This document shows positions 9,106-60,173 of a DNA stretch of 64,000 nt, piece after piece; within the stretch, counting starts at the first letter, position 1, and each line of letters begins with the position of its first letter. A model generated the notes under the pieces. That model did not search any database. It was given only the letters and a program-made list of their open reading frames with translations, and had not been told where the DNA came from. Source of the DNA: Nemertoderma westbladi (Eukaryota > Animalia > Xenacoelomorpha); contig JAUCBJ010007025.1 of NCBI GenBank assembly GCA_032718475.1, forward strand, positions 6,365 to 70,364, written 5' to 3'. The translations under genes were made by a program, and so were the position numbers.

Positions 9106-9378
9106 ACCCAAATCGCAATCCTCATAAATAATAATAATAAAAAACTCATCCGCGAGCAATGCATTAATGCTGTCCAGCATACAACCTCGGCCAATCAGTG
9201 GCGAGGTCGGAGTCGCTATAAGAAGAAGAGTAACTACCAGCACTCCAAGTCCGCCATATCTACAGACAGGAACCGGGGTACCTCTAACTACAACGTACGG
9301 GAAACAATCCATCAAGTGAAACAGCGGGGGGAATGTTTAAACTGCTGGGGTCAGTACCCCCACCAGGATAATAACTGT
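9106..9378 (+). pseudogene. Retroelement gag zinc-knuckle fragment
   Basis: The plus frame reads VRETIHQVKQRGECLNCWGQYPHQDNNC; no start codon; appears truncated by the adjacent LTR. Confidence 0.4.
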
Positions 9379-10765
9379 TGCCGTTATTCCCAACACCAGG
9401 GGGGAAAACGCCGATGCTGGTGGCGGAATTTTCAGACCACTTGATTCTGGCCAGTCACCGGGTATTGGGAGTGGAGAAGGAGATATTATCTGAGATGCAG
9501 GATTGCGAGTAGAGAAAAAGCTGCATTGGTTGGATATAATCTTTTAATGTAACTTGAACTCTAATTGAACCCTGATTGAGAATAATTTGGGCTTCCCCAC
9601 ACCAATATACCAAATATTTACAATAATACACAAATATATAAATTCCTACAGTACATTATTTAATTACCCACTGTTCGCTTTTAGATTTTAACCTAACTAA
9701 TGATCCCCATTTTCCCTCGGTCCTAGTCCCGGTACCGTAGTGTCAGTGTCGGTCGACCCTGTTGCGTGTCCGTCCCACCCTTCCCGAACCCCGGAGGGAT
9801 CGGTCATCAGGAAAGCGGTACGGTTTGGCTAAGGGTCGGTCAGGTTGGTCGACCCTGTTGCGTGTCTATCCCACCCTTCCCGAACCCTGAAGGGATCGCT
9901 CATCAGGAAAGCGGTACGGCTTGGCTAGGGGTCTGTCAGTTTATCGCAGGGTCCCAACCACCTAAGCTTTCCGAATCCTTTTCAGGCTTGTAATCGAGTC
10001 GGTAGCCGAGAAGCTGCTCCGAATAGTCGGTAGGCCAGTAGAGTCTGGTCCTCTGTCTTTCGACCCTGTTGCGTGTCTGTCCCACCCTTCCCGAACCCTG
10101 AAGAGATCGGTCATCAGGAAAGCGGTATGGCTTGGCTAGGGGTCTGTCGGCCCGTTGTGAGTCCCAACTGTCGGAGCTTTCTGAATCCTTTTCAGGCTCG
10201 TAGTAACGCCAGTCATGGAACCCACTCCAGGAAGTCAGTCCTCGTCGAACCCTTCCTTCGTCCAGTCCTTCGTCCACTCCTTCGCTCAGTCAGCAAGCTT
10301 TCCGAATCCTTTTCAGGCTCGTAATCGCTGCCAGTGACCAGGGACCGCTAAGGATCTGTCAGTTCCCGTCGCAAATCCCTGGCGCAATCAGCAAGCTTTC
10401 CAAATCCTTTTCAGGCTTGTAATCGCTGCTGGTGGCCAGGGACCGCTAAGGGCAGTCCTTGTCCCCAGGCCTAGCGGGTTACCAACTACCGAAGTAGAAG
10501 GAGGTTGTCTAGGCCTAAATAAGTATCAGGCAACCCTGACACCTAAAGTAATGCTTGATTTTACCTCCCACCCTTGGCCCTTAAATGTCTGATATGAGTC
10601 CCGTGCCCCGTAAGTTGCCCCAATATTCGCCCATAAATCGCCCCCAGTCCATTGAGTATGCCCAAATTTTATGTTTCGCACCCAGTACTGATATTGGAAT
10701 ATTCATAATAAATAAATCCAAAAAATATTTAACTCGCGTTAGGGCAAATAGAAATACTGCAAACA
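9376..10765 (-). repeat. Putative 3' LTR of BEL family 2 (left boundary uncertain: 9376 or 9334)
   Basis: Starts TGTT after the PPT and ends GGCAACA; no second copy in the window to confirm it. Confidence 0.55.
9750..10452. repeat. Interspersed direct repeats inside the putative LTR
   Basis: Unit of about 90 bp (cgaccctgttgcgtgt...tcatcaggaaagcggta...ggcta) x3, and agctttccgaatccttttcaggct-like x4 (about 9965, 10176, 10295, 10394). Confidence 0.85.
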
Positions 10766-10895
10766 GTCCCCCCCAATGACCTTTGTGAGGTCTATCGGTA
10801 GATTGAGTTTGCGTAGGTCATTTCCCCATATAAAAAACCCAATTTTTTACTCTTGCATAGTCTTGATTAATTTGTCCCAGAGTTAGTTTATATAC

Positions 10896-13561
10896 TTATA
10901 AAAATAAATGTTTGATATAAATGTCCATAGAATTTCCTCGTCTTCTATCTCCTGCTCTGATACGCTTTCCTTTTCTTCGCCCGTCTACTCTCATCGATCT
11001 ACAGTGCGGGTAGAGGAGCATCGTTGTCCGTCGCGAGCATTGCCGCAGCTTGCCTCCTGGCAGCCCTTCCTTGGCAGGGTAGCGAGATGATATCTGTTCA
11101 TCTCTCCAACTCGGTGTTGCGAGCCGCTTTAAACCACTCTCCATCTCCAAACGCTTCCTTGTACGAGTATAGACGTCTGATTATTTCGAAGGGACCAAAT
11201 AAACCAGCGCTCAGTAATAAATCCACATAGTGGAAAGGCAAGGTTGTTGTCGTATGGAGGCGTTCGGGGAACGAGAAATATCCGCATGCCATCTCTTGTG
11301 CGACATTTCGAGCACTTATATGCGCTCTGGTCTTTATATGGGTATTGGCGTATGTTTCGAACATAACCATATTCGCAATGGCCGTCGCGTCTTTAGTGGG
11401 ACACTTAATGTTGCATCGGGGGCTCGCGGTATGCCCACGGAAACCACACTTTGTACAGAGGTTATAGAGTGTTGGACAAACCGCTACATCATGGCCCGAT
11501 ATAGCGCAATAGGGATAATAGAGTATCCCAAGGATCTGGAAGCACGGTTCGGTGACCCGTTATTTCTTTCCGATGGACATTGATCCGAACCGCAGTTTCC
11601 ACAAACGTTGAGTTGCATTTCCCGGCCAAAAAAGATCGGGATTGGTACTCCGGCGTAGTACTCCAGTCGTCTATCTCTTTTTAGGATAATCGTAGTAACC
11701 GGGAGCCCACGGAACACTGCGCTGTCGCGGAGTAGGATCTCGCTCCGGTATCCTTCTTTGTAGTCCGCCGGACGCATCCCGGGCGCCCGTTTCTGACAGT
11801 GGATCCACTCCATTTGTTCCGCGTACCACCGAGTGAGTCTCATCAGATCTTGTGGAACGGAGGGTGCCGTCACCACAGCCGGTCGGTGAAGGGGTGCCGG
11901 GGCATTCGCCGAAGGAATCCCGAGGAGGTCTCCAGGGGTTGGAGCTATACTAGGACCCTTCGCAACCTGGATAGCTGAGCGGGTCCGCTGGGTACTGGTA
12001 CTTGGGATTTCCAACGACCAATCTTCTCCCCCCAGGAACGGATATGGAGACAGCCTCTGGCACGTGTCGCCAAAGTTGCTAAGTGCGAAGGTGGTGACTA
12101 ACTCTCTAACCGGACTACTGGAACCAAGCGGAGTGGTTACGCCTGCTTCCGTCGCAGGTTCAGCCTCGGCGATTCGCTTAGCGGCTGGTCCGTAAGCGAC
12201 TTCCGGTTCGAGTAGTCGTTTTGGGGTGGATAGCAAGACGCCTTCTTGTTTCCATAATTCCTCCCCTTCCGACAATATCAAGGGTTCCTCTGTGCCAAGG
12301 AGATCGGCAGTCGTTGGGATATCGAAAGGTCCATTATTATCCCAGGATGCGATAACGTTGTGCGTTTTGGTATCTCCTGGTGGGATATTCTCCACCGCCT
12401 TGAACGCGTGGTCGATTACTTCGTTCCATTCATAATCATCATTCCATTCATAATCAGTGAAGGATTTGGGGACCGCGTTAATAAGTTTATCGAGAGTCTT
12501 ACAGATGAACTTGGCAACTGTATATGATTCCATTGTGACGTTGATGAAGTTCTGTCGATCCGGCTCCTCCCATTTCTGGTGGATCGTCCACCTTCTCTCT
12601 AAGTCCCCCCAAAGATTGTCCCGTTCATTTTTTATCGCTAAGTCCGGATATGCACCGTATATCTTGTTATAGTCTGGTAACTTCTGCAGTTTAAAGTCCA
12701 AACCGCCATTTAACACCGCGAGGTAGCCGATACCAGATATCGTCTGTCTCACTTCTCTAAATCCACCCATTAATCCCAATCCACCGCAACCAGGCTAACA
12801 GGGTTTGGGTGTCGACGAAGTGGCTAATGGCGTTGATGTCCTCTCGACGATTCCTTCCAAAAGGAGCGTTAGCGTAGTCGTTCCGGATGTCCTCCTTTAT
12901 ATCCAACCCGATCTTAATAATATCGAAATCAAACAAAATCTGTTGGATCGCCGATGGTAGTAACAAGACCGCCCCGGCTGTCCGTAGTTCTTGTTGGGGT
13001 GTCGGGAAGATTCGACATATCAATACCAATCCATCTAGGGTTCCAAGGACGACGATTAGCGATCGACCATACTCCTTCGTCCCGTATTTCTCCTTATAAT
13101 CGTCACGGTTTTGGATGACTGCTATACGCTCCTCCCGCAGCGTCGCTGTACATTCCGCTAGGTTTCCGCAGTGGGCGAGATATGTACTCTTGTCGTCGAT
13201 GAAACTCTGACATCGCGCCATCGTAACTGCCTTCGGAATTGGCGTTGCGTTGCCCTCGTTGTCTTATATCAAGCACCAGGATTTGTAGACGCTTTGCCGG
13301 AACGTATCCCAGAACGACAACTCATCTCCTCCGGTTGCCTCAGCGTTCCGAATCATTTTCAGTCTCGTACTTGCATCGGACAACCGGAGCGCCTGCAGGT
13401 TACGGGTATCCGGTACTCCCTCCCGGAGAATTTAATGACTTCACATTCTCTTTCAACAGGGCATTCCATTTCGTATCAAAACTAGTAGATCCAGGTTGTG
13501 GATAGTCCAATAAATCAAGCGTGTTACGTAATTCGCCAAGAATCTGGCGATTCGGGTCCAT
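10896..13561 (-). pseudogene. Frameshifted accessory ORF: DEDD exonuclease-like domain plus CCHC knuckles (homolog of 42628-46881)
   Basis: Collinear blocks LPSAIQQILFDFDIIKIG..DIRNDY..FVDTQ; SGIGYLA..GLDFK..YNKIYG; CGNC..; YPYCAISGHDVAVCPTLYNLCTKCGFRGH (alternate frame near 11430-11520); FETYANTH..GYFSF. Confidence 0.85.
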
Positions 13562-14109
13562 AGTGTAAATTATGTCCGTTACAAATTAAATCAGTTAATT
13601 ATAAATCCAGAAAGTCTGATTCTATAGTGACTGCAGAATAATTCAGTTATTTATAATACAGTTAATATTATTGCGATATAGGCATCTACCATCTTATTGC
13701 TACTACATTCAGTATTTACAGTTACTATAGCTATACATTATTATCCAACCAGTTTTTTGACTTTTTATGTCCGCTTCTTTTTCAAATTCTTTTCCACTCT
13801 ACATTTTATACTTTTTTTTGTCTTTTTTATTTCACATTTCATTATTCATTCCACATTTCATTATTTCTTTCACATTTCATTATTTATTACATCATTACAT
13901 CATTTATTACACATTTCATCATTTCTTACACCATTTCATTGGGGTTATAGCCCCCCGGCTATCATCATTTGTTATAAGCGCAAACACCAGGGTGCGCATC
14001 ATCACATTTTCATCATCATACGCGTCATCATTCAGTTTATAGTTGAGTTATCTGTTCCTTTTCATCATTTCGTACTACATTCAACCATCTTCTTGGGAAA
14101 TTTTCGTTG

Positions 14110-14522
14110 TGGAGGGGGTGTTACGCGGCAATCTGGGATCTACAGCTGGACTCGTTACACTGCCTACGCCCCAAACTGCACACATAACGGAAAATGAAGA
14201 TGCTGGAAGTGAAGTCACGTGGAATGCACCAGGGACCCACCAGAATAACACCTCCAGAAACATAAAGCTCAGCCGACGAAGTCATGTGGGATGGGGTTAC
14301 GCAACATTCTGGGATCTACAGCTGGACTCGTTACACCGCCTACGCCCCAAAATCCACGTAACGGTCCCACCAGAATAACGCGGCTGAGGAACATAAAGTC
14401 TCTATCGACGAAGTCATGTGGAATGCACCATGGACCCACCAGAATAACGCGATAGAGGGGGTGTTGCGCGGCAATCCGGGATCTACAGCTGGACTCGTTA
14501 CACTGCCTACGCCCCGAACTGC
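14110..14522. repeat. Degenerate tandem repeat (period about 170 bp) in the integrase-ORF3 spacer of BEL family 2
   Basis: gggatctacagctggactcgttacac.gcctacgcccc x3 and cccaccagaataac x3. Confidence 0.85.
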
Positions 14523-14807
14523 GCACGCAATGGACAACACAATACAACACAATGGATACAATGAATTCCACTTCGAATCTTTACCGTTAAAGATAATCCA
14601 AGGTAGTTGGTCCTGATGACCAAAATCAGGGTGAACAAAACATAAACTACCCTGCGTCAGTCAAAACATCTGCAGGGTGAGGCTGAACTCCACATAACAC
14701 ACAAGGAAACACAAATACCATGCATGGTTATAGTTGGTTTAAGGGGGGGTCCATAATCATTGTCGGTAAATCACGTTTAAAGTGTTTGTCAACAGGATGG
14801 GAAGGGT

Positions 14808-15350
14808 TTAAACGGGTTTATCATTGTCACCAATGTCCGCAGCAGGATCCGGAGTAGGGAACTTATCACCTCTCATGGAGTCACCACTGCCATTGCCTTC
14901 GAGAAGGCACAGCCTCGGGATAGGGCGTTGGTAGTGGCCCTTTGCCGTTCGTATCGTCACTGTCCTCGCAAGTCCATCCTTGCTTGGTGTTATCTCCATG
15001 ACTCGCGCCACAGGCCAGTAGACGCGGTCTTTAAGGTCTTCTTTAACAAGTACCATGTCGAAAACTGCGACGTTCCGGTATGTGTTATTCCACTTCCTCC
15101 TGGTCCGGAGGGTTATGAGGTATTCCTGGGCCCAGATTCTCCACCAATGCGCTGCCAGCGCTTGGGCCTTCTTCCAGTTCTGGTGTCTCGAGATATCATT
15201 GGGATCTGGGAACATTGCCTCCGGAAGGATGTTGGTCTTGGGTCTTCCGAGGAGATGGTTGGGTGTAAGGGGTTCTAGATCAGTTGGGTCATCGTGGATG
15301 GGAACGATTGGCCGGTTGTTCAAGGTGGCCGTAATTTCGCAGAATGTGGT
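14808..15350 (-). pseudogene. BEL/Pao integrase C-terminal region (5' truncated)
   Basis: LNNRPI..LEPLTPNHLL..WWRIWAQEYL..LRTRRKW..DMVLV..WPVARV..DGLARTV..RPIPRLCLLE. Confidence 0.92.
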
Positions 15351-15829
15351 GCTAAATAATGTGATAAATATTTTGCGATGGCAGAAATTATAAAGTGCTA
15401 ACTCGACAAGATTGTTACTTCTCATAAAAAGCAATGAATTAGTCCATTATGACTGCCATCATTTTCATACTAGGTTAGCACTACAGTATATTCAATTTAC
15501 TTTTAAAATATTATACTACTAACATTTACACAGCGCAGTTAGCACTATATTAACTTTACTATCAAAATGTTATACTGCTAACATTTACACACAAAGTTAG
15601 CACTACAGAGGATTCAGCCAATATAGTGATGCACACATGAGACGCTAGGGGGCGCATCGCAATTTACACATACACATGTCCGAGTTTGCAAAAACTTTAA
15701 AGTGCTAACAGCCAAACTGGAAGCAAATTTGGACCAATCATGGCTTTAGAATTCGTTTGGCAGGTTTGGTTAGCACTTTAAGTTAGCACTTTATCCTAAA
15801 AAGCTGCTGTGTAGTTAGACGTTTAGGGG

Positions 15830-41349: not shown

Positions 41350-42549
41350 TGTTCGCGCTTTCAGACCTTTGGCAGTTTAACCCGCCAAATTAGGATGTCT
41401 TTATATAATAAATCACTTTTAGCCTATGACAAGTATTTGATTCACTACACTAGTCGAAACCAATCTGTGCGCGATCATTCACCCGCTGGATATACCCGGG
41501 AGATTGGGTTCGACGGCTTAATCTTATTGCTATGTAAGCCTAATGTATTATTCGATTGACAGTATTATATAATCTCTGACAATATTATTCACCTTCAGGG
41601 AATATTAACAGTTCCTTTAGGACGTGGCGCTCTATCTATATAAACAGAGTTATGACTTGAACTACTCACAACGATATGGCTTAGTTATAATTCACATATA
41701 TGGCGCATTCTTTAGGAAATGCTTCGTTATCAGTCTCACTCATACACAATGCTGCACAATACTGCACACTAATCTGCCGATCTTCACTGATTTTATTCAC
41801 ATATAAAAGGAACACGGACCGACTCATGTAGGGTCTATCAAATAACATTAGATTCACTTCAAACCACTTTAACATAAGTCACAATCGTTATATATAACCT
41901 TTCTCTCTTACCTTCGGTATATCAAGAATATTGGGTTTCGGGGTTATTTATCGTTATTCCAAATATAATAATTCATCAACCATATTATGAAGGACCGACA
42001 GTAAATAGCAGTATAACAATATAAAGTATGCACAGTGTTTGATTAGGTATGGTATGTTATGATTTGAGTTGAGATAACGGATATATGTCCTTATAATTAA
42101 GCCTACTAGTGTTAGGCTAAAAACAGAACAGCACAAAATATTTCCAAGCCGCTCTCTCCTGGCTCAGGACAGAATGTAAACACTGCACATAAAGCATTAC
42201 GTGATTTCTAGGAAATTTCTCTACAAGAGCCATAAAAATGCTCTGATTGGCTGACTGAACTGAGAGACGCCGTAGAACAAAGAAAATCAACACGTATGAA
42301 TATCAGCTGTTAACCGTAGTCATAGTAACTACTGTTCAAGAGTAGCTATCACCCTTTGCGTCATGGAATTGCCATAGAATCATCAACTATGCCTTTCACA
42401 GTACACATACGGAGGAAATAGGTCTTAGATCCTCTAAAAAACACCGATACAGCAATAATACGGTCTCTTACACCTATTAAATCAACTACAGAGTATTTTA
42501 ATGTAAAAGATAATAAAAATAACGGGGCAATTCAGCAAAGGCTTTTACA
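41350..42549 (-). repeat. BEL 3' LTR (1200 bp)
   Basis: TGTAAAAGC...GCGCGAACA, preceded by a purine tract. Confidence 0.93.
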
Positions 42550-42627
42550 CCGCTCCCAGAAAATGGGATTTTCAGTCTAAAAAATATAAAAATCACAGTT
42601 TCTAAAACCTAAAGATACTCTAAACAG

Positions 42628-45600
42628 TTAGTCTTTCTTACGCGGACGGCGTTTACGCAGTTTCTTGAGGCTAGCAAGAGTCCTTTTCTCTTTGGGGCGA
42701 GCCACTTTACGAGGAGGGCTGTAGCTCCTAGGCGAAGGGTGCAATACAATTGCATCAGAAGGTGTAGGGTTACGATCGGTATACCCGCCGGTCGAAGTGC
42801 CTGGTTGATTAATATCAACCTCGGGGGAGCGAGGTCTAACGGCCTTTAGGGCGCGTCTCAGGACAGCAGCTCCTACGGGTCCTTGACGGGTCGTCTGGAC
42901 ACTAGCGGTGGGTGGACCGTGAGTGGTGAGGAACTTTCTCGGTTTAATGGTTCTCTCCAGCTCGCGTTCTCGGGTTCGATATTCATATGGTCGCCGAGAT
43001 ACTTCTTGTAGTTCAGGATGCGAGTTCACAAAGATGTCGCCATACTCGGGGTCCTGACGGATAAAATTGATCAGGTGATATGTGGTTATATCATTAGGGT
43101 TAACGTTTCTAAGGTATTTTCTGACAAACTTGGTGGAAATACACTCACCAACACGCTTCATTAACTCGTAACTTGGTACGCGTGTTTTCTGTTCAATCGA
43201 CGCGAATAGATAAGGATGGAACGCGTAAACTCCCTCGTAAGCTCGTCCAGGGTAATAGCGATGTCGAGATTCGCAATGTAAATCCGCGTTCGCTTCCCAA
43301 GCTCGGATGTATCGCAGGGTGATTATCTCGTCTACGCTCTCTAAATCGCGATTAAAGGGACAATTGTAACTTTCATGTCCTTTAAGTTGACAGTAGTGAC
43401 ATTGAGTCATAAATTGTGGGCAGACGGCAAAGATATGAGAGTTATTAAGTCTGCAATAAGCACAATATATTTCCATCATCGGTTGTTCGAGGAAATAGGA
43501 ACAAGGTACGCTCGAGTCTAGAGGGGTGAAGTGGTCTCTCGATGCGCATAATCGACAACGTTTTCGAGAAACGTAGTTGGCGTGTCGATAATCGTACGCT
43601 GTGAGACGTTGTGGACCTTGATACCATTCTATGACATAATCATTGTCACTGCTCCGGGAAGTTGTAGGCTGAATCGCTTCTGATTCCAAGCACACTGGTT
43701 CATCCTCCAGCTGTATAGACGAAGTGGGTGCGTCTGTCTCAGTAAGTGGATCTACTGTCTGTATTTCCACGATAGAATAACCTGTAGGTATTCGGGGTCT
43801 TTGTATAACAGATGAATGTAAGTTCTGTATACATACGTCTTGAAACACGGCAAATCCAGCGCTACTCAGTTTCTCCGCAGCTGAGTCTCTCAGACTGAGT
43901 TTGGTCAGCGCGCGGTCCTTGAACTGACTATCGACGTTACGGAACGGAGTCAGAAAGCGCCGGAAACATTCGAAACGTATGAACTTATTGTGTTCGTCTA
44001 ACTTGGCGAGTTTAGTTCCAAGTATTAATGGATGAGCGCGTATGGTACGACTGCACACATCGGCTAGCCAACCGGCAAGTGCTGCGTTTTCAAAGATCGT
44101 GTATATAGCTAAGGAAGGGCGAAGTGGAACACTCATAAAGCTATATACGGCACCAGGCGCAGTTAATGGTCCATCAAAATATAAACGAGAGTAATGATCT
44201 CCATATACTTGCTGGTAATTGATAGGATTTCCAACTTTGAAGTTCCATCCATATTCTTGAAAGGCAAGATGTCCGATGGATGTCCGTTGTACTTTAGTAA
44301 TGTCGCTGGGTGTATTGGCATACATAGTGCGAAAGAAACCTCGGCCTTCGGCCCAAGGAGCAATCAGCTGAGTATCAACGAAAGGGTATGGAATGTTTTC
44401 CATATTCCGGAAGTCGTTTTGGAGATCTCCATAAACAGCTGAGCCGATTTTTAGGATTCTTTCGTTAAACAACATTTCGAGCACAGGTTGGGGTAACATT
44501 GATCCATCGATACCCATGGCCGGTTTGCGCTCGGTGTCGGTGACGTAACGCTGCGCGAGCTCGAATTGTCCATGTCGAAGTTTCTTTTGTGTCTCCGTAA
44601 GGGTTTCAAAAGAATAATCAATCACGTCGGAACACGCTCGAGTGAATACGTGGGTAGAACCAGCGAGTCCTCGTATATGTATCATTCGCGTAGTTCCTAG
44701 TTCTCCCACCGGAACGCTACCTTCGTTGTCATAAGTAACAACGCCATACATCTCGATAACGTTAAGAGTCTCGTTCCATTCTTTAGTGGCGTTTTCGAGA
44801 GTCATTCCCACTGGATGCCACAAAGTAGCGCATTCGCTAGCATTGGGTAAATCTCTATACTTTAAGCATTGTGTAGTATAGGTTTCCACATCTCCATATC
44901 GTTTTATTCTTTCTTCCTCGAATAACACGTCAAGATTCCAGTGTACCAATCGAGTTTTAATGAATCCATCAAGATTGTACGGAGGTAATATTTCTTTCTC
45001 TATTCTGGAAATATTATACGGTTTTCGAAATGAGTTTAGTTTAACTAGCTGATCTAGATGTTTTTGTAGTTGTTCGAGTTCGACGAGGTCGAGAGGATTG
45101 ATCAATGGTAGAAACTTCAGACTATGCGTAGGATCTTCTGGTTTTACCATGTAATATTGCTTTAAATTGACGTAATAAGGATGATCCTTAATTCCATAAA
45201 ATGAGTCCGGCAAAGGTCTAGCGCGTATGTTAACATCGTGTACCATGCGACGGACAAGATCCGCTCTATTGTCCGGAGGCTCAACAAGTACACCATCGAC
45301 ACGAGCAGCCGCTATGGGTGGACGTTGTATCATAGGAGCGTCAGCAATGAGCTCGTGAGATCTGAGATCAGTATTAACCGGTTGAGGCTGTACCGTAGCA
45401 AAGAGCTTGTCTTTAAAATGAGGAACCATCGAGGGGTGGAGGATCGTTTTGGAATAGAGATCCGTCACGAGAATTTGAGTTTCTGGTTGGGCTAAAGCAG
45501 CTTCTTCCCTCTCAGTCAGCTCTATATGTCTCTCCTCGAGCTGATTTTCCTCAGCTTGTTGTTGCAAGCGCTCGTCCAGGAATTCCTGTAAGGAGTAGGT

Positions 45601-46881
45601 TCGTCCACGTTCGATGTCCTCCTCTAGATTCTGTATTTCTCTATCGAACTGGGGCAAAGCTAGTTCTTTCACCGCTTGGACTTGTTGTTGCAATTTACGT
45701 TTCTCCAAGCAATCGTAAGTTCCTTTTCCGATTTTCTGCCGAATAGCGTCCAATGCATTTCGTATCACGCTCTCTTCGACTTCTGTTACAGGTTGTATCG
45801 GAGGGAGGCCAGGACGGTTGTAGGGGTTAAACGGTGATATTAGATGACCGCGTCCTAGTCCAGCGAGGTAAGGTTGGCGAATATCTAACGAACCCACTAC
45901 CGGAGTGCCACCAATCAACTGTTCAGGTAACACTAGATCTTTGAACAGTGAGTATAGCTCGGGAGGATCCGTAATACTATTAGGATCGAGAGTTTGAGGT
46001 ATCACTTGGGAATGAGGAGGTCTGACCGAGTATTCCGGAACTCTGATCATGGGTTTGTTCAATGATCGTTTAAGGCGCGCGACCGTAGGTGATACGTCGA
46101 AAAGGTTTCGCTCGAAACTCCCATAAGTATATCGCGTAAAACTGTGTTTAGCGCAACGTCTCCGCGGATGTTTATGCCTTTCGATCTGCTGGTTAGGTCT
46201 AGGGCATTCGTCACAGTAATACCAAAGACGCATGTCTTGAAGGGGAAACGCGGGTGATCGCTCTCCAGTTTTACAATATTCCTCCATCTGTTCGAAGCTA
46301 TCTGGAACGACAGGGAGTGGTCGATCGGCGGTAAGATACATCATCGTAAAATAGAGCCGTTTGAGTTCCATCATAGGATCTGGATGTATACCTTGAGGAT
46401 ATCGAGTTTCGAGGTTTTGTTGACTAGCAACATTGAGATAGGTCTCTCTTAGGAATTCTAGATATTCGTTGAAGCTGCTACGTTTATCAGGTTCTTCAAC
46501 GTCTTCTCTTTCGAGTTTATTTCGAATAGAGTTCTCGTGTTCTATTCTCGATTTGTCGTTTCGACTCCGCTGGGTATGATATTTAAATAAAACCATTTCC
46601 CTTTCGGTGTCGACATCGTCGGTGTCGTGTAAATCAATAGGATGACCAGTAGTCAGGAAGTCCATATACGTACCATTACGATGCGTATAGCGAGCAGTGA
46701 ATTTTCTATAGTCCAATTCACGCGTAAGTTGCTCCTGGGACATTGGCAGTTCGATATAATGACCATCGTCCTCCGTAGTAGTTGGATCAGTGTCGCCGCG
46801 TATTAAGCTATCGACAAACGCTTGTAAAGGTAGAGTATATCTCTCCCTGATACCAAGATCATCTTCTATTAATTCAGTCAT
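42628..46881 (-). CDS. Accessory ORF3 (1417 aa): DEDD/DnaQ-like 3'-5' exonuclease-like domain, three CCHC zinc knuckles, basic C-terminal tail
   Basis: Intact 4.25-kb frame; VVTYDNEG (ExoI), LPQPVLEMLFNERILKIG..GDLQND (ExoII), FVDTQ, SIGHLA; CRLC..H..C, CAYC..H..CP, CHYCQLKGHESYNCP; KKLRKRRPRKKD. Confidence 0.85.
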   Translation of the reverse strand: MTELIEDDLGIRERYTLPLQAFVDSLIRGDTDPTTTEDDGHYIELPMSQEQLTRELDYRKFTARYTHRNGTYMDFLTTGHPIDLHDTDDVDTEREMVLFKYHTQRSRNDKSRIEHENSIRNKLEREDVEEPDKRSSFNEYLEFLRETYLNVASQQNLETRYPQGIHPDPMMELKRLYFTMMYLTADRPLPVVPDSFEQMEEYCKTGERSPAFPLQDMRLWYYCDECPRPNQQIERHKHPRRRCAKHSFTRYTYGSFERNLFDVSPTVARLKRSLNKPMIRVPEYSVRPPHSQVIPQTLDPNSITDPPELYSLFKDLVLPEQLIGGTPVVGSLDIRQPYLAGLGRGHLISPFNPYNRPGLPPIQPVTEVEESVIRNALDAIRQKIGKGTYDCLEKRKLQQQVQAVKELALPQFDREIQNLEEDIERGRTYSLQEFLDERLQQQAEENQLEERHIELTEREEAALAQPETQILVTDLYSKTILHPSMVPHFKDKLFATVQPQPVNTDLRSHELIADAPMIQRPPIAAARVDGVLVEPPDNRADLVRRMVHDVNIRARPLPDSFYGIKDHPYYVNLKQYYMVKPEDPTHSLKFLPLINPLDLVELEQLQKHLDQLVKLNSFRKPYNISRIEKEILPPYNLDGFIKTRLVHWNLDVLFEEERIKRYGDVETYTTQCLKYRDLPNASECATLWHPVGMTLENATKEWNETLNVIEMYGVVTYDNEGSVPVGELGTTRMIHIRGLAGSTHVFTRACSDVIDYSFETLTETQKKLRHGQFELAQRYVTDTERKPAMGIDGSMLPQPVLEMLFNERILKIGSAVYGDLQNDFRNMENIPYPFVDTQLIAPWAEGRGFFRTMYANTPSDITKVQRTSIGHLAFQEYGWNFKVGNPINYQQVYGDHYSRLYFDGPLTAPGAVYSFMSVPLRPSLAIYTIFENAALAGWLADVCSRTIRAHPLILGTKLAKLDEHNKFIRFECFRRFLTPFRNVDSQFKDRALTKLSLRDSAAEKLSSAGFAVFQDVCIQNLHSSVIQRPRIPTGYSIVEIQTVDPLTETDAPTSSIQLEDEPVCLESEAIQPTTSRSSDNDYVIEWYQGPQRLTAYDYRHANYVSRKRCRLCASRDHFTPLDSSVPCSYFLEQPMMEIYCAYCRLNNSHIFAVCPQFMTQCHYCQLKGHESYNCPFNRDLESVDEIITLRYIRAWEANADLHCESRHRYYPGRAYEGVYAFHPYLFASIEQKTRVPSYELMKRVGECISTKFVRKYLRNVNPNDITTYHLINFIRQDPEYGDIFVNSHPELQEVSRRPYEYRTRERELERTIKPRKFLTTHGPPTASVQTTRQGPVGAAVLRRALKAVRPRSPEVDINQPGTSTGGYTDRNPTPSDAIVLHPSPRSYSPPRKVARPKEKRTLASLKKLRKRRPRKKD

Positions 46882-47369
46882 ATCTGCTATACGAGTTCAC
46901 CAATATTATAATGAGTTTATATATTTATTAGGCGAGCGGGCGTCGCTGCCTACTTCTCCCTTGCCCCGGACAGTGTGATTCTCAGCGCCGATGTACCGCT
47001 GTCGCTGTACTTTCGCCAACGACGTAGCTGTACAACGACAACGATAACCGGCACAAGTCACTCCACTGTCCGTCCCAAAGGCTTAGATGTACTTCAGGTT
47101 TCCTTGGAGAGTTAGGTTACTTTCACGATTGCGACTAGCTACTGTAAACACACTTTAGCAGTAACATTCACCTATAAACTCACAAATACCACACAACTGG
47201 TCACAACGACGCACATTCGGGCCATTTGTCCGTTAGTCAATGCCTTCCAGAATGTCACTGTATTATTATGTATCCTTGGATACTAGCAGTGCACTGTTTA
47301 TTCCCTATGCTATTCAATGGGACAAGCTGTCTATTGTTCTTTTAACTCAATTCTAATTCTAGCGTGGTT

Positions 47370-47383
47370 GTTGCTATGGTGAC
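47370..47383 (-). promoter_or_regulatory. RFX X-box-like motif in the pol-ORF3 spacer
   Basis: GTCACCATAGCAAC about 490 bp upstream of the ORF3 ATG; identical at 1132-1145. Confidence 0.35.
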
Positions 47384-48527
47384 ATTATGTAAAGCTAGCA
47401 GTAGAATTAGGGTAATTCCAATGCATACAGATCTGGGATGTTATTTAATAGTAATTCTTTAATGGTCAATGTCCTGTTTTATACATGACTTTATGAATTT
47501 TATCGGCTATTGACTATGTTTGGGAGACTTTCTCACACTCATACGCATAATAAGATAAATCTCCGCTCCCTTGATCTATTAATTAATGGAATTTTGGGAA
47601 TGTTATAAATTGCGTAAAAATGGCAATTTATTAAATTCATTAAAAGGCATGAATTTAAATTTATTCCCTGAAATTTTATTATTTGATAATTAAATGGACA
47701 TATTTTGATTCTAGAACATGTCTGGGGACACAAGATCCTTAATTCTATGAAAATTGTCTTTTTAAGAATATCGGTAAATGCTACGATATCTTAATTGACT
47801 AGAATTGTTGAAGGATCTGAATTTTACAGAGTTGATTTATTAGATTTGCAAATATTAAATAATTAATATTTGAGATGGGCACCGATTTATTCCAGAACTT
47901 GTCTGGGGACGTTAACCACTGATTCTAAAATTTGTCTTTCAAGTATATCGGTGGGTGCCGCGATATCTTAATCGACTAGAATTACAGATGGTCAAAGGGT
48001 TTAACAGATTTATTTTGCGTTATACGCTACTGTTAAAGGGACATCACGCTACTATATGTATTATTTAATATACGGTATGAGAGCAATATCGCACGAAGCA
48101 ATGTCAGTGTGAAGAGGCAAGTCGTTTCCAAGGTCTACCCAGAGCTTGGTTTAGCCGAGACACGAGGATCTGAACTTTGCATTCCTAATACTCTGCCTAC
48201 CAATAATACTTGAATATAGTAGTGGCTTTATTGTACTTTAATAAGTACGGAGATTTCATCTTACTGTAGTTACGTATTTATAATGTAATACGGACAGTAA
48301 GGAAAGAGAAAAAGAATTGTTTCTCGCCGTCGCACTAAATATAATATAAGTAATTACGTACGCAATGAACACGAACATATTGCACTATTCTACTAAATAA
48401 TCGCTAAATAATATTCTACTAAATTAAATAAAACGATTATAATAAAATTACATAGTAATACATACATAAATATAAAAATAATAAAATAATATAAAATAAT
48501 AGAGTCACACGCCCACTCCGAACGATA

Positions 48528-51500
48528 TTAAGTTGGGGAGTCCCTAGATGTCGGTTGGATTAGGGAAGTGGTCGTGGGAAGAGTTTCTTGTCTTCCATAG
48601 TTTCCGGAGAGCTCTCTGTCTCTTTCCAGTAAACATAAACGACCCACTGGGCGATTGAGCTGTTGAGTCTCAAAGACTATCCCTGGTTTCTTAAAGTTAC
48701 GACGCATGACGACGAGCTCTACTGATCGCACCAAACCATCGCTCGAGATATGAGTCTCGATGATACGTCCTGTTTGCCATCGCTTACGTGGGAGATCGGG
48801 GTCCACAATAAGCACCATGTCTCCAGCGCTGACGTTTTCTTGCTGCGCAAACCACTTAGTTCGAAGTTGTAGAGTGGGCAGGTAATGTTTCTCGAAATGG
48901 TCAGCGAAACGACGGGATAGCAACTGCATAAGTTGCCAGGTTCGACGGCAGTACTCGTCTCCGTCTGTGATCTCCGATCGTGGGAGCATGGCTACGGGTT
49001 TTTTCAGTAGAAAGTGCGCGGGTGTTAGCGCTTCCAGGGAATCAGGACTTGAAGAGACTGGCATAAGCGGTCTTTCGTTGAGATAGGCGGCGATTTCCTC
49101 CATTAACGTCCGCAATAGTTCGTCGGTGAGATAAGCGCGACAAGGCACAATAAAGTGGAACGCAGTCTTCACGCTCCTAATCAATCTCTCCCAACTTCCT
49201 CCCCACCAAGGGGCGTCGGCGGCGTTGAAGGTCCAGCTAGACGCTGTTATCTTTAGCTGATCGTCCACCTGTCTTTTGTTCCAGTCCTTTACGTAAGCTT
49301 GAATTTCGTTGTTGGCGCCAATGAAGTTCGTTCCCTTATCCGATCTCATCGTGTTACTGGTTCCGAAACGAGCGATCTGTCGTCGTAAACTCAACACGAA
49401 GCTGTTGGTGGATAGATCGTTTACCATATCGAGATGGATAGCTCTACAAGTCATACAAACGAAGATGACACACCATCTCTTGACTATAGTCCGGGCACGA
49501 TATACTTCAATAGGGCCAAATAAATCCACACCGGTATTAGTAAAGGGTGGTTCATAGAAGCTTACTCTTTCCCTAGGTAATTCTGCCTCTCGCTGTGTTA
49601 AAGGCCTACTGAATGCTTTCCTACAGGGTATGCAGTTCCTAAGAACTTGGTTCAGAGCCCTACGGGGTTTATAAAAATAGTAGCGAGTTCGAATTTCACT
49701 CAGAACTCGTTCTCTACCAGCATGGTACAGTTTGCTATGAACATCTACAATCATCTTGATTTGTATGTCAAGATTTCTAATGAGTATGGGGAACTTAGTG
49801 TCAAAGGATAATGGGGCGTTGGTAAGCCTGCCTCCAACACGTATTAACCCATCTATCATGGTACTAGAGAAGCGATCCCTTAAGCGCATCTGTGGATTTC
49901 TTAACAACAGGAAATACTTATCGGAATCCTCATAACATTGTAGAAGTCTCAGCATCTGTTTGTTGGTTTCATCATGCTCCTGGTAACTGATCTTCTCCTT
50001 TAGAAACCTGTCGGATATCTTGTATTGGGGAAGGTCTTTAACAACATGGACTCGTGCAGATGTTGATGGAGCATCATCACTATGGGTCTTTGTCCCGGAG
50101 TAATGATGATGAAAACATCGTTTTAAATAGGTGACGGCTTTGCAGAGCCGATTCCAGGAGCTGTAGTGACATATCGCTCTCTGCAAGAGGGGTGAGAGTC
50201 CTTGTGCGATATCTGGTATTCCAGATTTCCAATCCTTGTCACGGATTTCCAAGACTTCTTTAGTCGTGGCGGTGGGTTTCTGATCCAAAGCATCATCTTC
50301 GGAAGTAAATAATACAGATAGATCAACCGCAGGTTTAAACAACTTCGATTTACTCGCTCGAATTTTAGGTTTAACTTTCTCCGCTCCCTTGGCCTGTCTG
50401 ATCTCTGCTGTTGTGAGATGGGGAGGCCATTCTTCTTCTTCTTTGTAGAGAAAGTCGGGTCCACCTAACCATTCGGGAGTATTTACCAATTCCTTTGGAG
50501 TCGCTCCTCGGGAAGCGATGTCTGCTGGATTAATCGTTCCGGGGCAATGTCTCCATTGGTCCATCGTCGTGCGACTAAGTATGATGGCTACCCTGTTGGT
50601 AACGAAGACGCTGAACTGACAGACTTCATTGGTTATATACTCTAACACGAGTAAAGCGTCGGTCCAATAGACAGTTTTCTCTAATGGATAGTCAATCTGT
50701 TCTGTTACATTCCGGCCGATGGCTGTAGCGTATAGAGCCACTTTTAACTCCGCTCGAGGAACTTTCAACTTGTTGTTGATTAATGCCTTAGAAGTAACCA
50801 AGGCGACTTTGATTCCATCCGGAGTTTCCACTCTTAGATAGGCTACTATACCTATTTCCATATCGCTGGCGTCTCCAAACACATGGAGTTGATAGGAATA
50901 CGTAGGGAGAACATGACCAAAATATGAACGGGAAATTATAAAATCCTCGATAGCTGGCAGAGAATCTTCCCATTTCATCCACTTCTTCAATAATTCTCCC
51001 TTAAGTGGATCGTCCCATGAGTGGTTTTCAAGCCACATTTGTTGTACCAAACTACGAGCAATCAATATAACTGGGCTAATAAATCCCAATGGATCGAAAT
51101 AAGTGCTCAGTATACTTAAGCAAATCCGTTTGGTTCGAACTGGATTATCTCGCTGTTTTAGCTGGAAAAACAGGATATCTCGCTCTGTGTCCCATTTCAA
51201 GCCGAGTGTCTTGGTTTCTGGTAGATCATCTTTGATCAAATCGAGATCTTTCGCTCCTCGATCTTCCGCAGGGATCGACTCCAGAAACTCACGGGAGTTG
51301 CTGGTGAATTTCGTTAATCAAAACCCACCTCTTTTTAAGCACTCTACCGTTCCTTTAGCTACCTCAATGGCTTCCTCAACTGATGGAAGGGACTTCAGAT
51401 TGTCGTCCATGTATATGTCTCTCTTGATGTTGTCGATCACTTCCTTAGAGAAGGCCTCTCGGTTGTCTTCTGCAGTGGTACGCACTACCGAACAGGCGTT

Positions 51501-54500
51501 GGAAGGGCTTGAGATTATCCCAAAGGCCTGGATGGTCATCCAGTACTCCACCGGTTTCTGGTTGAGGTCTCCTTCGGGCCACCACAGAAATCGTAGACTA
51601 TCTCGATCCCTATCTAACACCTTGACTTGTAAGAACATGCCTTCTATATCGGAGGCGAAAGCAATCGAATATTGTCTCAATCTTAAAAGAATTCCCAACA
51701 AAGATTGAAGCAAGTTGGGTCCGGGTAACAATTCAGAGTTAAGGGATTGACCCATGTAAAGAGCGGAGCCATCAAACACTACTCTCACTTCATGTGGTTT
51801 ACCGGGTTTAGGAACGTAATGGTGAGTTAAGTAATACGTTCTTTCAGTCACAGGTGTTTCTTCCGGTACTCTCTCCGCGTATCCCTTACTAATAAATTTC
51901 TCCAGCTGTGTTTGATACATTGCTTTAGCTGAAGAATTAGCCGTAAGGCGTCGATGGAGTTGCGCGATTCTTTTTTCCGCCAAGGGTCTGTTATTGATGA
52001 ACTTCGGTTCTCTCTTGCGGAAAGGTAGACCGACTTCATACCTACCTTGATCTTTGAGGAAACGTGTAGTTGTCTCTTGGATCTGCTTGGCCCTTTCCTC
52101 TTCCACCGACAAGGCTTTATCGTAGGAATTGGGCTCTACCGCCTCTTGCGTAAAGAATCGTACGGCATGTTCATCTCGAGTCTTGGCATTACAACGCTCA
52201 ATGACATCATTTAGCTCGTCGTTATAAGCTTCTCGTTCAGATGGATAAAGAAGTTGACATAAGTTCACTTGGTTTTGCCAAGCCTCGTTTTCCTTAAAGA
52301 GGTCGATGGTATTCTCCTCATCAAAAAGCTGGTGCACGTCGTCGTTATCTGAGGAGTATGGGGTTCCCTCAGTTAAATCGTCTCCCTCACTAGTATCATC
52401 TTCCCATTCACTCACCTGGTAGACGCGCTCTTGCGGTAGTCTTTCTCTGAGTGTTCTACGGGAAGGGCCAGTAAAGTACCAACCTACTCTAGTTCTTACC
52501 GCATAGGTCTGTAGTGGCTGCGTTTGAGCAGGCCGTTTCTCTAATGTCTCCAGCGCCTCATGCGCGTTTTGGCCGATGAGTATTTGCACTCCAGGATAAT
52601 CAGTCTGGAATCGAGGTATGTTAAGATGTTGGATACTCTCATCCTCGTCCCAATTATAAAGGTCTGCTTGAGTAGTAGCGAAGTTCTTTATAGCTACCAT
52701 TTTCACTGACCTTATGCTATGTTCTCCTAGTTCGTCCTGGGGGGTGGACAACGCTCCTACATAATAATCCACTGTTATTGTAGATTTCCAAACTTGCATA
52801 ATTCCTGACATGTTTAGCTTAGTTCGGAACTTGGGTTGTCCATCAAATATGTCTTCGGCTAGTTCTTTATCAATGAATGTTCCTGTACTACCGGAGTCAA
52901 GGAGGGCGTTCACTACATAACTCCTCTTAGGTCCGTGAACCCTTACTTGCACCACAGGAAACTCTCGGATCCCTACATTGGAAGATGGCTCTTTCCAAGA
53001 TGGTTGTCGCTCAGAAGTAGTTAGAGTGAAGTCGTTGTCTGTATCCTTTTCATATGTGAGTGCTCGATACACTGCGGTATTTATCATGTAACAGGATTCG
53101 TTTTCGTCGGAGAACTCGTCTGTATAGAATCCTTCCATCTCAGATTGATCAGTGTCGTTCACATCACTGAATTGGACATGTAGCTCGGAATCACTTACCT
53201 GATTCGGACTATTTCGCTCGAATTCAGCATGCAACAAGATATGATGTTTCGCACCACACTTTGCACACCTTATGTCAGAGAAACAGGTACGCCGTTGGTG
53301 TCCTTGTCTGAGGCAATTATAACATAACCGCTTATCCCACATGACTTCGCGTCTCTCCGTTAATGACTTCTTCAGGAATTCATCACACATATTCAAACGG
53401 TGGGTCCCGTCACACAGCGCACATTTCGGTTTGATGTTACTTACCTTATTTTGAGTCACATTGTGTACACTTGCCTTTTCTTCGGGCTTTCTCACCGGAA
53501 TTCTCTTGGGAGACGTGGGAGGAGTTTTTCTTACCTGTTCTCTCCTGTCATTTGCTCGAGACTTGAATTTACTTACCTGATCTTTAGGCATTTTATTGAC
53601 ATAATAAGATCTATCAGTGTCTTTCCCGCTATCTTCTCCTTGAGAAGTCTGGCTTTCGCCGTCGTCTGTATAACACACTGGTGTTACCTTTCTCCTAGAG
53701 ACGGGTTTTTCACTTACCTTGTTTTCCAGTGTCTTCTCTCTGGACAGTTTCAGGAGCTGTAATTTCACTTCTCCATCTAGGAATGACATGAGATCAGCCA
53801 TGGTAGGGTCTCGTCGTTGTTGTTCCATCATATATAACACTTTCTTATCCCAGCGTGTACCTACTCCACCCTTCGGTAAAGTAGAAGCCACTGCTCTAAT
53901 AACCATAGCATTCTGATACTCCTGAGACTTACCTAGCCAATCTAATTGTCTACAGATCTCCTGAATCTCATCGGAAAACTCGATAATTCCGCTGCTAATA
54001 AACTTTCGGGGCGCTACCAACTTTGCATACAAATACCCAGCGATGTTATTCCTATTACCATACCTGATGTTTAGTGTATCCCAAACTTGTCTTAATCCGT
54101 CTGGATGTCCAATAAACTTTAACGCCATTAACTTGGGAGATCCTTCCAAGCACTCGATGAGGTATCTAAGTTTTTCTCCATTAGATAGTACAGAGTTCTG
54201 TATGTTATCTTTGTAATATTCATTAAAAGGTAACCATTTCATCTCATCTCCATTGAACTTGACGATCTCTCCCACCTTTACCGCTTGCCGGGCTTCGGTT
54301 CTAGCCATTTGACGCGTAAAACTTTCTTGGGCCATCGTGTTATTTAATATCGAGTTATCGGTATATAAATTTCTCGGATTATGATCAGTTCTATAGGGAA
54401 TGTCATTATCAACAGGTCTATAATTACCCTTAATAGGGTTCACTATAGGAGTTTCTACTTCGCTAGCAGTATAGATGCGTGTAGGCTCCACACCTTGCGC

Positions 54501-56735
54501 ATGCGATACTTCAGACCTAACAGGTTGACACATTGTTACAGAGGGTGGTGGTATACCCCTTTGAGTATTTACTAATTTATCGCGTTCTAGCGCGATACTT
54601 TGCTGCACTTCTTGCAACTCTAGCCTACTTTCCCTTACTGTGCCCTTGAATTGCTGGACAGTCTCCTGCATCTGCCCGAGCAGGAGATCCATCCCCCGCC
54701 GTCTCTCATCCACCCATTCGACCGCCGAAGCGGGAGTCGCCAACGTTGTAGCGGGCGGACGAGGGACAACGGGCGACAAATTATGAATATTTCGCTCGGG
54801 GTCCAGGACCTGAACTGTCTCCTGGGCAGTTCTACTGGGCACAGGTAGCTTAGTGCTATGTAGAGGGAATTTAGAGGTAGCTTCAGGGAGCACAGGTGTA
54901 TCTATCACCGAAGGGGTGATTTCAAAAACAGGCCTAATTATTTCAGGCTCATCTACTATAGTAGGGAGTCTTTCTATTTTAATTATTTGGTCTGTGGGTT
55001 CTGTACTACCTAAGCTGGTGTCATTTAGTTGCCTTCTAACAGCTGGAGGCAAATCAGGCAATTTCTGACGGTGGAATGTTCTTTTACGTGTGCTTAGACG
55101 AGATCTATTTCCTTTGCCTTCAGTATCGGTGGTATCGCCTTCCTCCGATGATGTATATCCCTGTCTTTTGGGAGTAGATCGATTCATCATCTGCATATTG
55201 CTAGCTGTTAACTGTTTATTTATGCAGTCTTGATTCTCCTGAATGTTTTCCAATTCTAATTGGGTGATTTCTTCAGTCGCTCTCCGTTCTGCTTCTGCCA
55301 CTGCCTTTGCCGCCTTTCTTTCGGCTTCGGCCGCTTTTGCTTCTGCCGCTGCCGCTGCCACCTTTGCCTCTGCCGCTGCCTCTGCCGCCTTTGCCTCTGC
55401 CGCTGCCTCTGCCGCCTTTCTTTCAGCTTCGGCCGCTTTTGCTTCTGCCGCTGCCGCTGCCGCCTTTGCCTCTGCCGCTGCCTCTGCCGCCTTTGCCTCT
55501 GCCGCTGCCTCTGCCGCTGCCGCTTTTCTTTCTGCTTCTGCAGCTACCACTGCTGCTTTCTTTCTGTCTTCTATACGTTTTTTCTTTACTTGCTCCTCTT
55601 GGACTCGTGTCAGGCGGAGTTGTTCATCAAATTTAGCCTGATTCGCAGCCCTCATTTCCACATCGATGGCATCCAACACAAGCTTGGTTCCTTCACTATT
55701 AGGGCTAAGTCCGTCTAACCTTCTCCTCAACTCGTCATCACCTAAAAAACGTTGATAGTCTGACAGATAGATGTCAATGGCATCCCTCTTATGCGGCTTC
55801 TCTGCCGTCGCTTCACTTTCCACTTGGGAAAAAGTAGCGTCTGTTGATTCTCCATGGGTTGAGCGCTCCTCCAGCTGAGCTTTCCACTGAGCTGTTCCTT
55901 GAACTTGGCGACTCACCCGTTGAAACCAAGTCTTTACGGCAACTTGCAACGACGTGTCTTGTCTTCTTTTAGAAGCCTCTTCAAAGGCTGATAATATTAG
56001 CCTGATTCGCAGAATTCTTTCTCTAACTTGATAAAGCAGTTGTCCCTGCTCTTGAGGTCCTTGAGGTTGTTGTAACAGTTGTTTTTCTACTCGCTCCATA
56101 GAGCTGAAGAATCCCTGTGCGTATCCGGCTGCGGACCTCTTCCACACAGCTGGATCGATGGTTTCCTTGGCTACTCCCATCCGGTGTATGTCTTCCCAGG
56201 CAGCTTCTGATAAATCAAACGGGAGTCCGGGTCCAGGGAAGTTCCATTGCGACTCGACAATAGACTTCAGTTCTTCCCTCGTGTATCCCGCATAACTATC
56301 TTTAGTTGATCGTTGACTTCTCGCCCAATCGATCTGGTGTTCTTCCACCGCGATCAATATCCTAGTGAGTACGGCTGCAGGAAGGATGAGAAGGGGATCC
56401 GAATAAACCGCATCCGTCATCTTTGCTCCGCGCTCGGGTGTCAGCTCTACAGTATACTCACTACTGGAGCTGTTGGGCCGTTGAGAAATAAGTTCTTGGC
56501 TCGCGGGTTGTTGCTGTTCTGCTGCTTCTTGGTCCCGCTTGACCTGAGCTCGAGTGCCTATGATAGACCTACGATGTTGGACCAGCCTAGGGTCTGATAT
56601 TACTACAGGAGGGATGACCTTCCTCACAGTAGGGGGTGAACTGAACTTAGGTCTAGACAGTTCTACACCTCTATCTGAGTCACAGATAGTTACATCTAAT
56701 AAACTGTCTGACAGGTTCTGCTTAGTATCAGACAT
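48528..56735 (-). CDS. BEL/Pao gag-pol polyprotein (Gag, PR, RT, RNase H, IN) in one frame, with one internal TGA at 51318-51320
   Basis: Triple knuckle; ALLDSGS; RVVFDGS, SDIEGMFLQV, YMDD; KTLGLKW, HVFGDAS, VPRAEL, NPADIASRG; H..HAG..CxxC, GVDLFGP, SDKGTNF, WERLIRSVK; the two listed ORFs are in frame (GGF*LTKF). Confidence 0.95.
55260..55560 (-). repeat. Coding repeat for an Ala/Glu/Lys helical segment in the Gag N-terminal extension
   Basis: AAEAKAAEAAAEAKAAAAAAEAKAAEAERK units. Confidence 0.9.
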
Positions 56736-58993: not shown

Positions 58994-60173
58994 TGTTCGC
59001 GCTTTCAGACCTTTGGCAGTTTAACCCGCCAAATTAGGATGTCTTCTAGATAATAAATCGCTTTAGCCTCTAACAAGTATTTGATTCACTACACTAGTTG
59101 AAACCAATCTGTGCGCGATCATTCACCCGTTGGATATACCCGGGAGATTGACTTCGAGGGCTTAATCGTATTGCTATGTAAGCCTAATGTATTATTCGAC
59201 TGACAGTATTATATAATCTCTGACAATATTATTCACCTTCGGGGAATATTAACAGTTCCTTTAGGACATGGCGCTCTATCTATATAAACAGAGTTATGAC
59301 TTAAACTACTCACAACGATATGGCTTAGTTACAATTCACATATATGGCTCATTCTTTAGGAAATGCTTCGTTATCAGTCTCACTCATACACAATGCTGCA
59401 CAATACTGCACACTAATCTGCCGATCTTCACTGATTTTAGTCACATATAAAAGGAACACAGACCGACTCATGTAGGGTCTATCAAATAACATTAGATTCA
59501 CTTCAAACCACTTTAACATAAGTCGCAATCGTTATATTCTCTCTTACCTTCGGTATATCAAGAATATTGGGTTTCGGGGTTATTTCTCGTTATCCCAAAT
59601 ATAATAATTCATCAACAAATATAATGAATAACCGACAGCAAAGCAGTAATGTTAAGTTAAGTTGCACAGTATGGGCCAGTTAACCAGTGATAACCAGTGA
59701 TAACGGATATATGTCCTTATAATTAAGCCTACTAGTGTTAGGCTAAAGCAGAAAAGCACAAAATATTCCAAAGCCGCTCTCTCCTGGCTCAGGACAGAAT
59801 GTAAACACTGCCCATACAGCATTGCGTGATTTCTAGGAAATTTCTGTACAAGAACAGTAAAAACGCTCTGATTGGTTGACTGAACTGAGAGATGCCGTAG
59901 AACAAAGAAAGTCGACACGTATGAATATCAGCTGTTAACCGTCGTCATAGTAACTACTGTTCAAGAGTAGCTATCCCCTTTTGTGTCACGGAATTGCCAT
60001 AGAATCATCAACTATGCCTTCCACAGTACACATACGGAAGAAATAGCTCTTAGATCCTCTAAAAACACCGATACAGCAATAATACGGCCTCTTACGCCTA
60101 TTAAACCAACTACAGAGTATTTTACGGGAAAAATAAGGAAAAATAACCGGGCAATTCAGCAAAAGCTTTTACA
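58994..60173 (-). repeat. BEL 5' LTR (1180 bp)
   Basis: Direct repeat of 41350-42549 with visible substitutions and indels. Confidence 0.93.

Follow-up and report, generated by a model that had tools for sequence, protein, structure and literature searches.

The window, by which we mean the whole 64,000-nucleotide stretch of DNA analysed here, contains nested retroelements. BEL family 1 occurs in it twice, once on the minus strand as an element of 18.8 kb (60174-41350) and once as a deleted copy at 8367-1; the accessory open reading frame under study sits in a separate, 5'-truncated BEL/Pao element, which we call family 2. The long ORFs of LTR elements in the window (three BEL, three gypsy-like) all run on the minus strand and the LINE-like ORFs at 17-24 kb on the plus strand, a layout reminiscent of a strand-biased piRNA cluster.

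The family 2 element and its decayed gene

On the minus strand, family 2 reads from a C-terminal integrase tail through a 1.25-kb spacer into the decayed ORF, beyond which lie a run of guanines (G7) and a candidate LTR. About 190 codons are left of its pol, and nothing of the element remains above about position 15383. The integrase tail (14808-15383) matches Pfam DUF5641 (E 1.8e-27), is 31% identical to the family 1 pol over 204 amino acids in a tblastn search of the window (E 5e-23), and has 345 protein matches, with PF18701 present in all of the best 120 of these 345. Judging by the element types and by the named proteins among these matches, the host is probably an animal. The spacer (13562-14807, minus) is non-coding and holds internal repeats together with an AT-rich 19-nt array (13826-13940).

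The accessory ORF itself (10888-13561, minus) spans about 820-890 codons and is interrupted by four frameshifts (near 13440, 13415, 12780 and 11570) and at least one in-frame stop (13266-13264). The start at 13561 given in the first-pass annotation stands, and the end at 10896 does not, being located in another frame; the candidate 3' ends are the stops of the knuckle frame at 11100, 11001, 10947 and 10890. From alignments (A2 and A4), motif positions and comparison with an RNase D-like profile, an RNase D/DEDDy-like exonuclease domain is placed at 12500-13263 (minus). Along the same strand its motif positions are Exo I DxE at 13263-13255, the Exo II aspartate at 12891-12889, FVDTQ at 12819-12805 and, from alignment A4, the Exo III position N-x3-E at 12542-12528. 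The sequence then enters a variable, acidic and proline-rich linker (11604-12499, minus), which sets Exo III and the first knuckle 309 amino acids apart, as compared with 178 and 268 in the two homologues P0001 and P0002 described below. Three Cys/His knuckle-like motifs follow (11413-11603, minus), located by motif position and by a match to P0002 (E 4e-11): the first one contains a frame break, the middle one is degenerate and the last is based on C-x2-C-x4-H, and the match to Pfam zf-CCHC_6 is under the cut-off (E 0.048). Downstream lies a conserved post-knuckle motif (11215-11361, minus), significant against P0002 only.

Beyond the ORF we find a putative polypurine tract, the G7 run (10766-10774, minus), and a candidate 3' LTR of 1094 nt with 96-nt tandem repeats (9672-10765, minus), delimited by its termini TGTT...AACA only. 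It is the sole LTR candidate of family 2 and has no partner in the window; an alternative boundary, 10765-9334, may apply. For this role 10765-9672 is preferred to the LTR at 8730-7536 (minus), as another element has left a fragment on the plus strand between the two (about 9152-9671). That oppositely oriented LTR-element fragment has a coding tail ending in RGEC, a purine tract and a TG at 9334, and a longer contig extends it with sequence absent from the window. The LTR at 8730-7536 has its own purine tract and is mosaic: over the 3' 830 nt it shares 88.6% identity with the family 1 LTR, and its 5' 360 nt compare with that LTR at shuffle level, the first 14 nt excepted, which suggests recombination with a third family. 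Moreover, a 28-nt stretch in the 5' part of the ORF (13342-13369) is 89% identical to part of the repeat unit of the candidate LTR (10296-10323), and related copies carry a replaced segment near 13342-13369.

Homology to the intact family 1 gene

The family 1 element (41350-60174, minus) consists of LTRs, gag-pol, a spacer and a third ORF. Its LTRs (42550-41350 and 60174-58994) are 90.9% identical, and gag-pol, whose Pfam domains include DUF1759 and PF05380 and whose gag has knuckles of its own, contains a single in-frame stop inside the reverse transcriptase (51320-51318). Separated from gag-pol by a 1.65-kb spacer, ORF3 (42628-46881, minus) is intact and encodes 1417 amino acids (P0001), with D718, E720, D819, Y927 and E931 and with knuckles at 1109-1174. 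The full-length protein has zero Pfam matches, and its 650-residue N-terminal extension (46881-44900, minus) likewise matches none. The ORF3 N-terminus of the deleted copy (638-7, minus) shows 34 differences in its first 273 nt, distributed 11/7/16 over the codon positions, with 15 codons silent and 15 changed. At 54900-55550 (minus), gag holds a long Ala/Glu/Lys repeat (AAAEAKAAEA) within a 700-residue N-terminal extension. A matching target-site duplication was not found for the 18.8-kb element, the flanks of which are two different gypsy-like elements.

The first-pass annotation had paired motifs of the two ORFs and taken them for one gene, divergent beyond nucleotide similarity. Indeed, the minus strand has every quoted motif, in the order given, and the homology at the protein level holds, with the pieces collinear, three of them above all shuffles and P0002 matching both families. 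A tblastn search of the window with P0001 (46881-42631) returned 12963-12790 (E 8.5e-4) and 11523-11326 (E 0.021). In Smith-Waterman comparisons with the whole of P0001, the pieces 13263-12760 and 11559-11101 scored 79 and 67 (0 of 300 shuffles and a shuffle maximum of 51 for each), 12794-11487 scored 49 (15 of 300), and the other four of the seven family 2 pieces were insignificant over 300 shuffles. Compared with the expected interval of P0001, each of these three pieces gave 0 of 2000 shuffles; the lead piece 13431-13267 (358 of 2000) and the linker end (346 of 2000) were insignificant. The best shared motif, DNEG at 13263, corresponding to YDNEG of P0001 (Exo I), was absent from the earlier motif list. 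One listed pair, FETYANTH..GYFSF and WEANADLH..GVYAF, fails against P0001 (1648 of 2000 shuffles) and is upheld against P0002 (0 of 2000). At the nucleotide level the ORFs, the spacers and the candidate LTR 10765-9672 against the family 1 LTR are all within shuffle range (best blastn E 0.11), in line with the earlier claim.

An HMMER scan that took the C-terminal 600 residues of P0001 as query and covered 1.84 billion representatives returned two matches. One of these, P0002 (648 amino acids, from a 9449-nt ENA contig and known here from the protein alone), is an outside homologue (E 6.5e-8 to the family 1 core) with its parts in the identical order. P0002 matches P0001 at E 4e-13 and 2e-5 and the family 2 pieces at E 4e-11, 3e-10 and 0.008, more strongly than P0001 matches the latter, and the post-knuckle motif is common to P0002 and family 2 (0 of 2000 shuffles). 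The other match, P0003 (E 9e-4), covers the knuckles only and was set aside. Word-indexed protein searches with P0001 690-1290 or with P0002 yielded no more homologues. Scans sensitive to close relatives only recovered no loci in viral contigs (queries P0002 and the family 2 integrase tail) or metagenome contigs (P0002 and the family 1 core), tblastn of P0002 against phages gave just two matches at E 6-10, which we disregarded, and PDB sequence searches with the core gave chance-level matches only.

Aggregated, these comparisons make the homology of the family 2 ORF and the family 1 ORF3 almost certain. The aligned cores of the three sequences are 27-38% identical, and those of the two families 23-31%. 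Based on this core identity of 27-38% and on the lack of a close cellular homologue among the 1.84 billion representatives, it is likely that the gene is not recently captured host DNA, as had been proposed. The family 2 version was also correctly described as missing the long N-terminal half: Exo I is preceded by about 100 codons in family 2 and 61 residues in P0002, as against 717 in P0001, and the core with its knuckles is therefore the shared unit. Since the short form occurs in two of the three sequences, the long N-terminus is probably an addition of family 1.

The family 2 gene is multi-copy, with all 30 bins covered in each of four runs from three studies; two of the runs, X1 and X3, represent one sample, and the best-matching run may come from the source sample. 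Within the ORF, 10 indels are listed at a threshold of at least 30% in runs X5 and X2, of which seven fall at the four frame breaks, one is an in-frame 18-nt block and two are upstream of the ATG. At the stop 13266-13264 most of the contig depth carries another base. Furthermore, over 1153 nt a diverged copy in run X5 has 184 substitutions and a single gap, and over 527 nt a second one has 101 substitutions and is gap-free. The substitutions distribute 14/6/19 over the codon positions (p 0.037) in a non-random sample of 39, namely the 40 best-supported of about 490 minus the row at the stop. As the indels fall at the breaks of this copy and second positions are spared, the breaks are lesions of this copy and the frame of the family has been kept open. 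The earlier claim of selection thus stands, in that related copies are free of these breaks and their substitutions spare second codon positions; judged by these patterns, the gene is under selection in related copies. The summed contig depth is far higher over the spacer and the LTR candidate than over the ORF, depth here being no copy number. RNA data sets were absent from the runs listed with the gene, a result that has no bearing on its expression.

An exonuclease-like core

Relatives of RNase D in PF01612 include WRN-exo, Mut-7/Nibbler, EXD1/EXD2 and Egalitarian. The BEL cores resemble RNase D and DNA_pol_A_exo1 (PF01612, TIGR01388) in having DxE, an L..L..p.i.K.....D...DTQ block and a Tyr-x3-acid helix in equal order, and depart from RNase D in the glutamate at Exo III, in insertions of 30-45 residues, and in knuckles in place of an HRDC domain, which was not found. 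D28, E30 and D85 of RNase D correspond to D718, E720 and D819 in P0001, to D62, E64 and D130 in P0002, and to D, E and D in family 2. Exo I, which reads DNE in both families and DVE in P0002, aligns with D28/E30 in MAFFT, and the Exo II aspartate aligns with D85. The canonical Exo III Y-x3-D is however absent, being replaced by Y-x3-E in P0001 and P0002 and by N-x3-E in the family 2 copy, and for this reason we call the class DEDDy-like rather than canonical DEDDy. The Exo III register rests on alignment A4, and automatic alignment shifts Exo III of P0001 out of register. The predicted catalytic acidic set would thus be D-E-D-E, kept in all three sequences.

Matches to curated families all remain far under cut-off, with statistical support for the alignment at the Exo II region only. 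The core reaches E 0.003 and 16.9 bits with the NCBIfam RNase D model (TIGR01388), for which the cut-off of 298.95 applies to a whole-protein model, and P0002 reaches E 0.2 and 11.9 bits with PF01612 (cut-off 23.6). Profile comparison by hhalign relates the core to ten RNase D-like proteins with a probability of 86 and E 4.9e-6 (0.5 for an integrase control), and to E. coli RNase D at E 1.7e-5. A local HMM of the ten RNase D-like proteins scored P0002 at 10.8 and P0001 at 9.1 bits (shuffle maxima 4.7 and 0.5) and left the two family 2 pieces undetected (-0.9 bits). PF01612 clusters of the Atlas were obtained for the cores at 0.92 and 0.93, where 0.9 is reached by 4-10 of 100 shuffled proteins. 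AlphaFold models have pLDDT values of 35 and 32, and Foldseek with one such low-confidence model gave no match at E 0.001. We nevertheless regard an exonuclease-like fold of the core as very likely.

The maximal 19-residue hydropathy is 1.19 in P0001 and 1.24 in P0002, without a membrane-like segment in these intact proteins, and a stretch of 2.11 in family 2 aligns with exonuclease strands; the ORF is therefore not an env. The exonuclease profile A4 gave no match in the best 120 of the 345 BEL proteins, none of which thus carries the exonuclease fused to pol.

Origin, proposed function and known counterparts

The first-pass annotation had further taken the gene to mark a BEL sub-lineage, a reading that the integrases neither establish nor refute: the tails of the two families share 32% identity, less than either shares with other BEL proteins (medians 41.6% and 40.8% to the best 120 of 345). 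In a quick tree of 122 rows the two carrier integrases are long branches and not sisters, and the unconstrained trees keep them apart. On the other hand, a 23-row tree forcing the two carriers together (99 rows left out, namely P0004 and those at least 58% identical to a kept row) is not rejected (p-AU 0.85), with a log-likelihood 11.7 units higher, which can arise from long-branch attraction.

For the history of the gene we lean slightly towards common descent in both BEL families. A serious contender, held somewhat short of even odds, is that the exonuclease-knuckle module has passed from one retroelement to another, through template switching or recombination, and was gained independently by the two families, in which case it marks no BEL clade. 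The integrase identity of 32% is inside the 26-39% range between superfamilies reported in the available text of PMC3118150, a rough guide derived from concatenated domains and a different region, and each integrase is about 41% identical to the 120 others. Similarly, at least two acquisitions are reported for the DEDDy ORF3s of rotifers, which Penelope-like elements share (PMC5408684), and the adjoining mosaic LTR (8730-7536) points to interfamily recombination within the window. Exchange is however at odds with the matching position of the gene in both elements, with a core divergence (23-31% identity) similar to that of the integrases, as common descent predicts, and with the tree uniting the carriers not being rejected. 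By comparison, it is very improbable that the matches are due to chance or that the ORF, unrelated to BEL, inserted separately or was recently captured from the host. Individual pairwise matches are weak and no contig bridges the integrase tail and the ORF among those listed, but three pieces at 0 of 2000 shuffles are triangulated with P0002, the layout matches in two elements, and the family is multi-copy with every bin covered in every run. Chance matching is thereby largely refuted.

In the reading we prefer, with a probability of roughly 0.6, the locus holds the decayed third gene of two divergent BEL/Pao families, likely encoding an RNase D/DEDDy-like 3'-5' exonuclease with knuckles that would trim RNA 3' ends for the element. 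The mechanism is inferred from the domain type. ORF3 would be expressed separately, possibly from a subgenomic RNA, since it opens with an ATG of its own after a spacer full of stops. The D-E-D-E centre would then support two-metal catalysis and trim RNA 3' ends, the knuckles and the basic tail would hold single-stranded RNA, and the targets may be the RNA of the element itself, in maturation, or small RNAs aimed at the element, within its ribonucleoprotein cycle. That the domain is catalytically active in intact copies is fairly probable, and given an active domain we moderately favour RNA over DNA as its predicted substrate. More speculatively, these could represent an old lineage of oversized BEL/Pao elements with an active exonuclease and RNA-binding knuckles of their own, serving in proofreading of reverse transcription or in destruction of host guide RNAs; such a role, which we consider doubtful, would make it a retrotransposon-encoded fidelity or counter-silencing enzyme. 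ExoN proofreads large nidovirus genomes.

Action on DNA, as proofreading or end-trimming during reverse transcription that aids the copying of a long element, is unlikely in our view. PF01612 does take in polymerase proofreading domains, family 1 measures 18.8 kb as compared with the usual 4.2-10 kb for BEL/Pao given in the available part of PMC3118150, and the knuckles are like nucleocapsid fingers (P0002 against HIV-1 NC, E 1e-4). The domain is however unfused to the reverse transcriptase, and RNase D is its best curated match. We hold it to be similarly unlikely that an inactive or weak nuclease fold acts as an RNA-binding scaffold, or as a decoy against the piRNA/siRNA machinery. Maelstrom and EXD1 derive from DEDD nucleases but lack activity and are limited to RNA binding (PMC5408684), the Exo III aspartate is replaced by glutamate in all three sequences and the core contains large insertions, yet all four acidic positions are kept at only 27-38% identity. 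With the intact family 1 domain, the function of these exonucleases becomes directly testable.

Juno and Vesta are Ty3/gypsy-like elements. RNase D-like DEDDy ORF3s have been described in the Juno/Vesta LTR retrotransposons and the Terminons of bdelloid rotifers, with the motif DEED, at least two acquisitions and an activity that is undemonstrated; DEDDy exonucleases had not been reported earlier in retrotransposons according to the authors (PMC5408684), and the available text of PMC6431247 and PMC5718144 repeats the account. The BEL ORF3 is congruent with these in being a separate ORF behind pol with an RNase D-like DEDDy domain and no membrane segment. It differs in its D-E-D-E set, in its three-knuckle array and post-knuckle motif, the only such feature noted for the rotifer proteins being a Cys-His-Cys motif in Vesta2/5 (PMC5408684), and in its BEL/Pao hosts, to which the rotifer elements do not belong. 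The Juno, Vesta and Terminon ORFs were not among the two matches from the 1.84 billion representatives. Analogously, Tas and Cer7 have an extra gene at the ORF3 position, an env according to the available text of PMC554778, whereas the BEL ORF3 is without envelope features and more like a cargo enzyme. The knuckles recall the tandem C-x2-C-x4-H-x4-C arrays of retroviral nucleocapsid and Air2 (P0002 against Air2, E 0.064), but are located in ORF3 and not in gag, the family 1 gag knuckles being separate. Genes behind pol are usually taken for env, and the present loci widen an observation so far confined to rotifers to a second LTR superfamily and two deeply split BEL/Pao families, which suggests that enzymes of this kind recur in retrotransposons as a selected function, one overlooked by standard annotation.

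Nematode Cer elements may carry an exonuclease-like domain. In the main text of openly accessible papers we found no case of a BEL/Pao exonuclease ORF: two surveys of BEL/Pao, PMC554778 and PMC3118150, do not use the word exonuclease in their main text, nor does PMC2774666, and the available parts of PMC3985635 and PMC11662393 add nothing on the subject. In the ESM Atlas, clusters of 208-214 residues are top or near-top for both exonuclease cores (0.92-0.95), with Basidiomycota the commonest taxon where one is recorded, and these clusters are possibly a related, unannotated exonuclease family.
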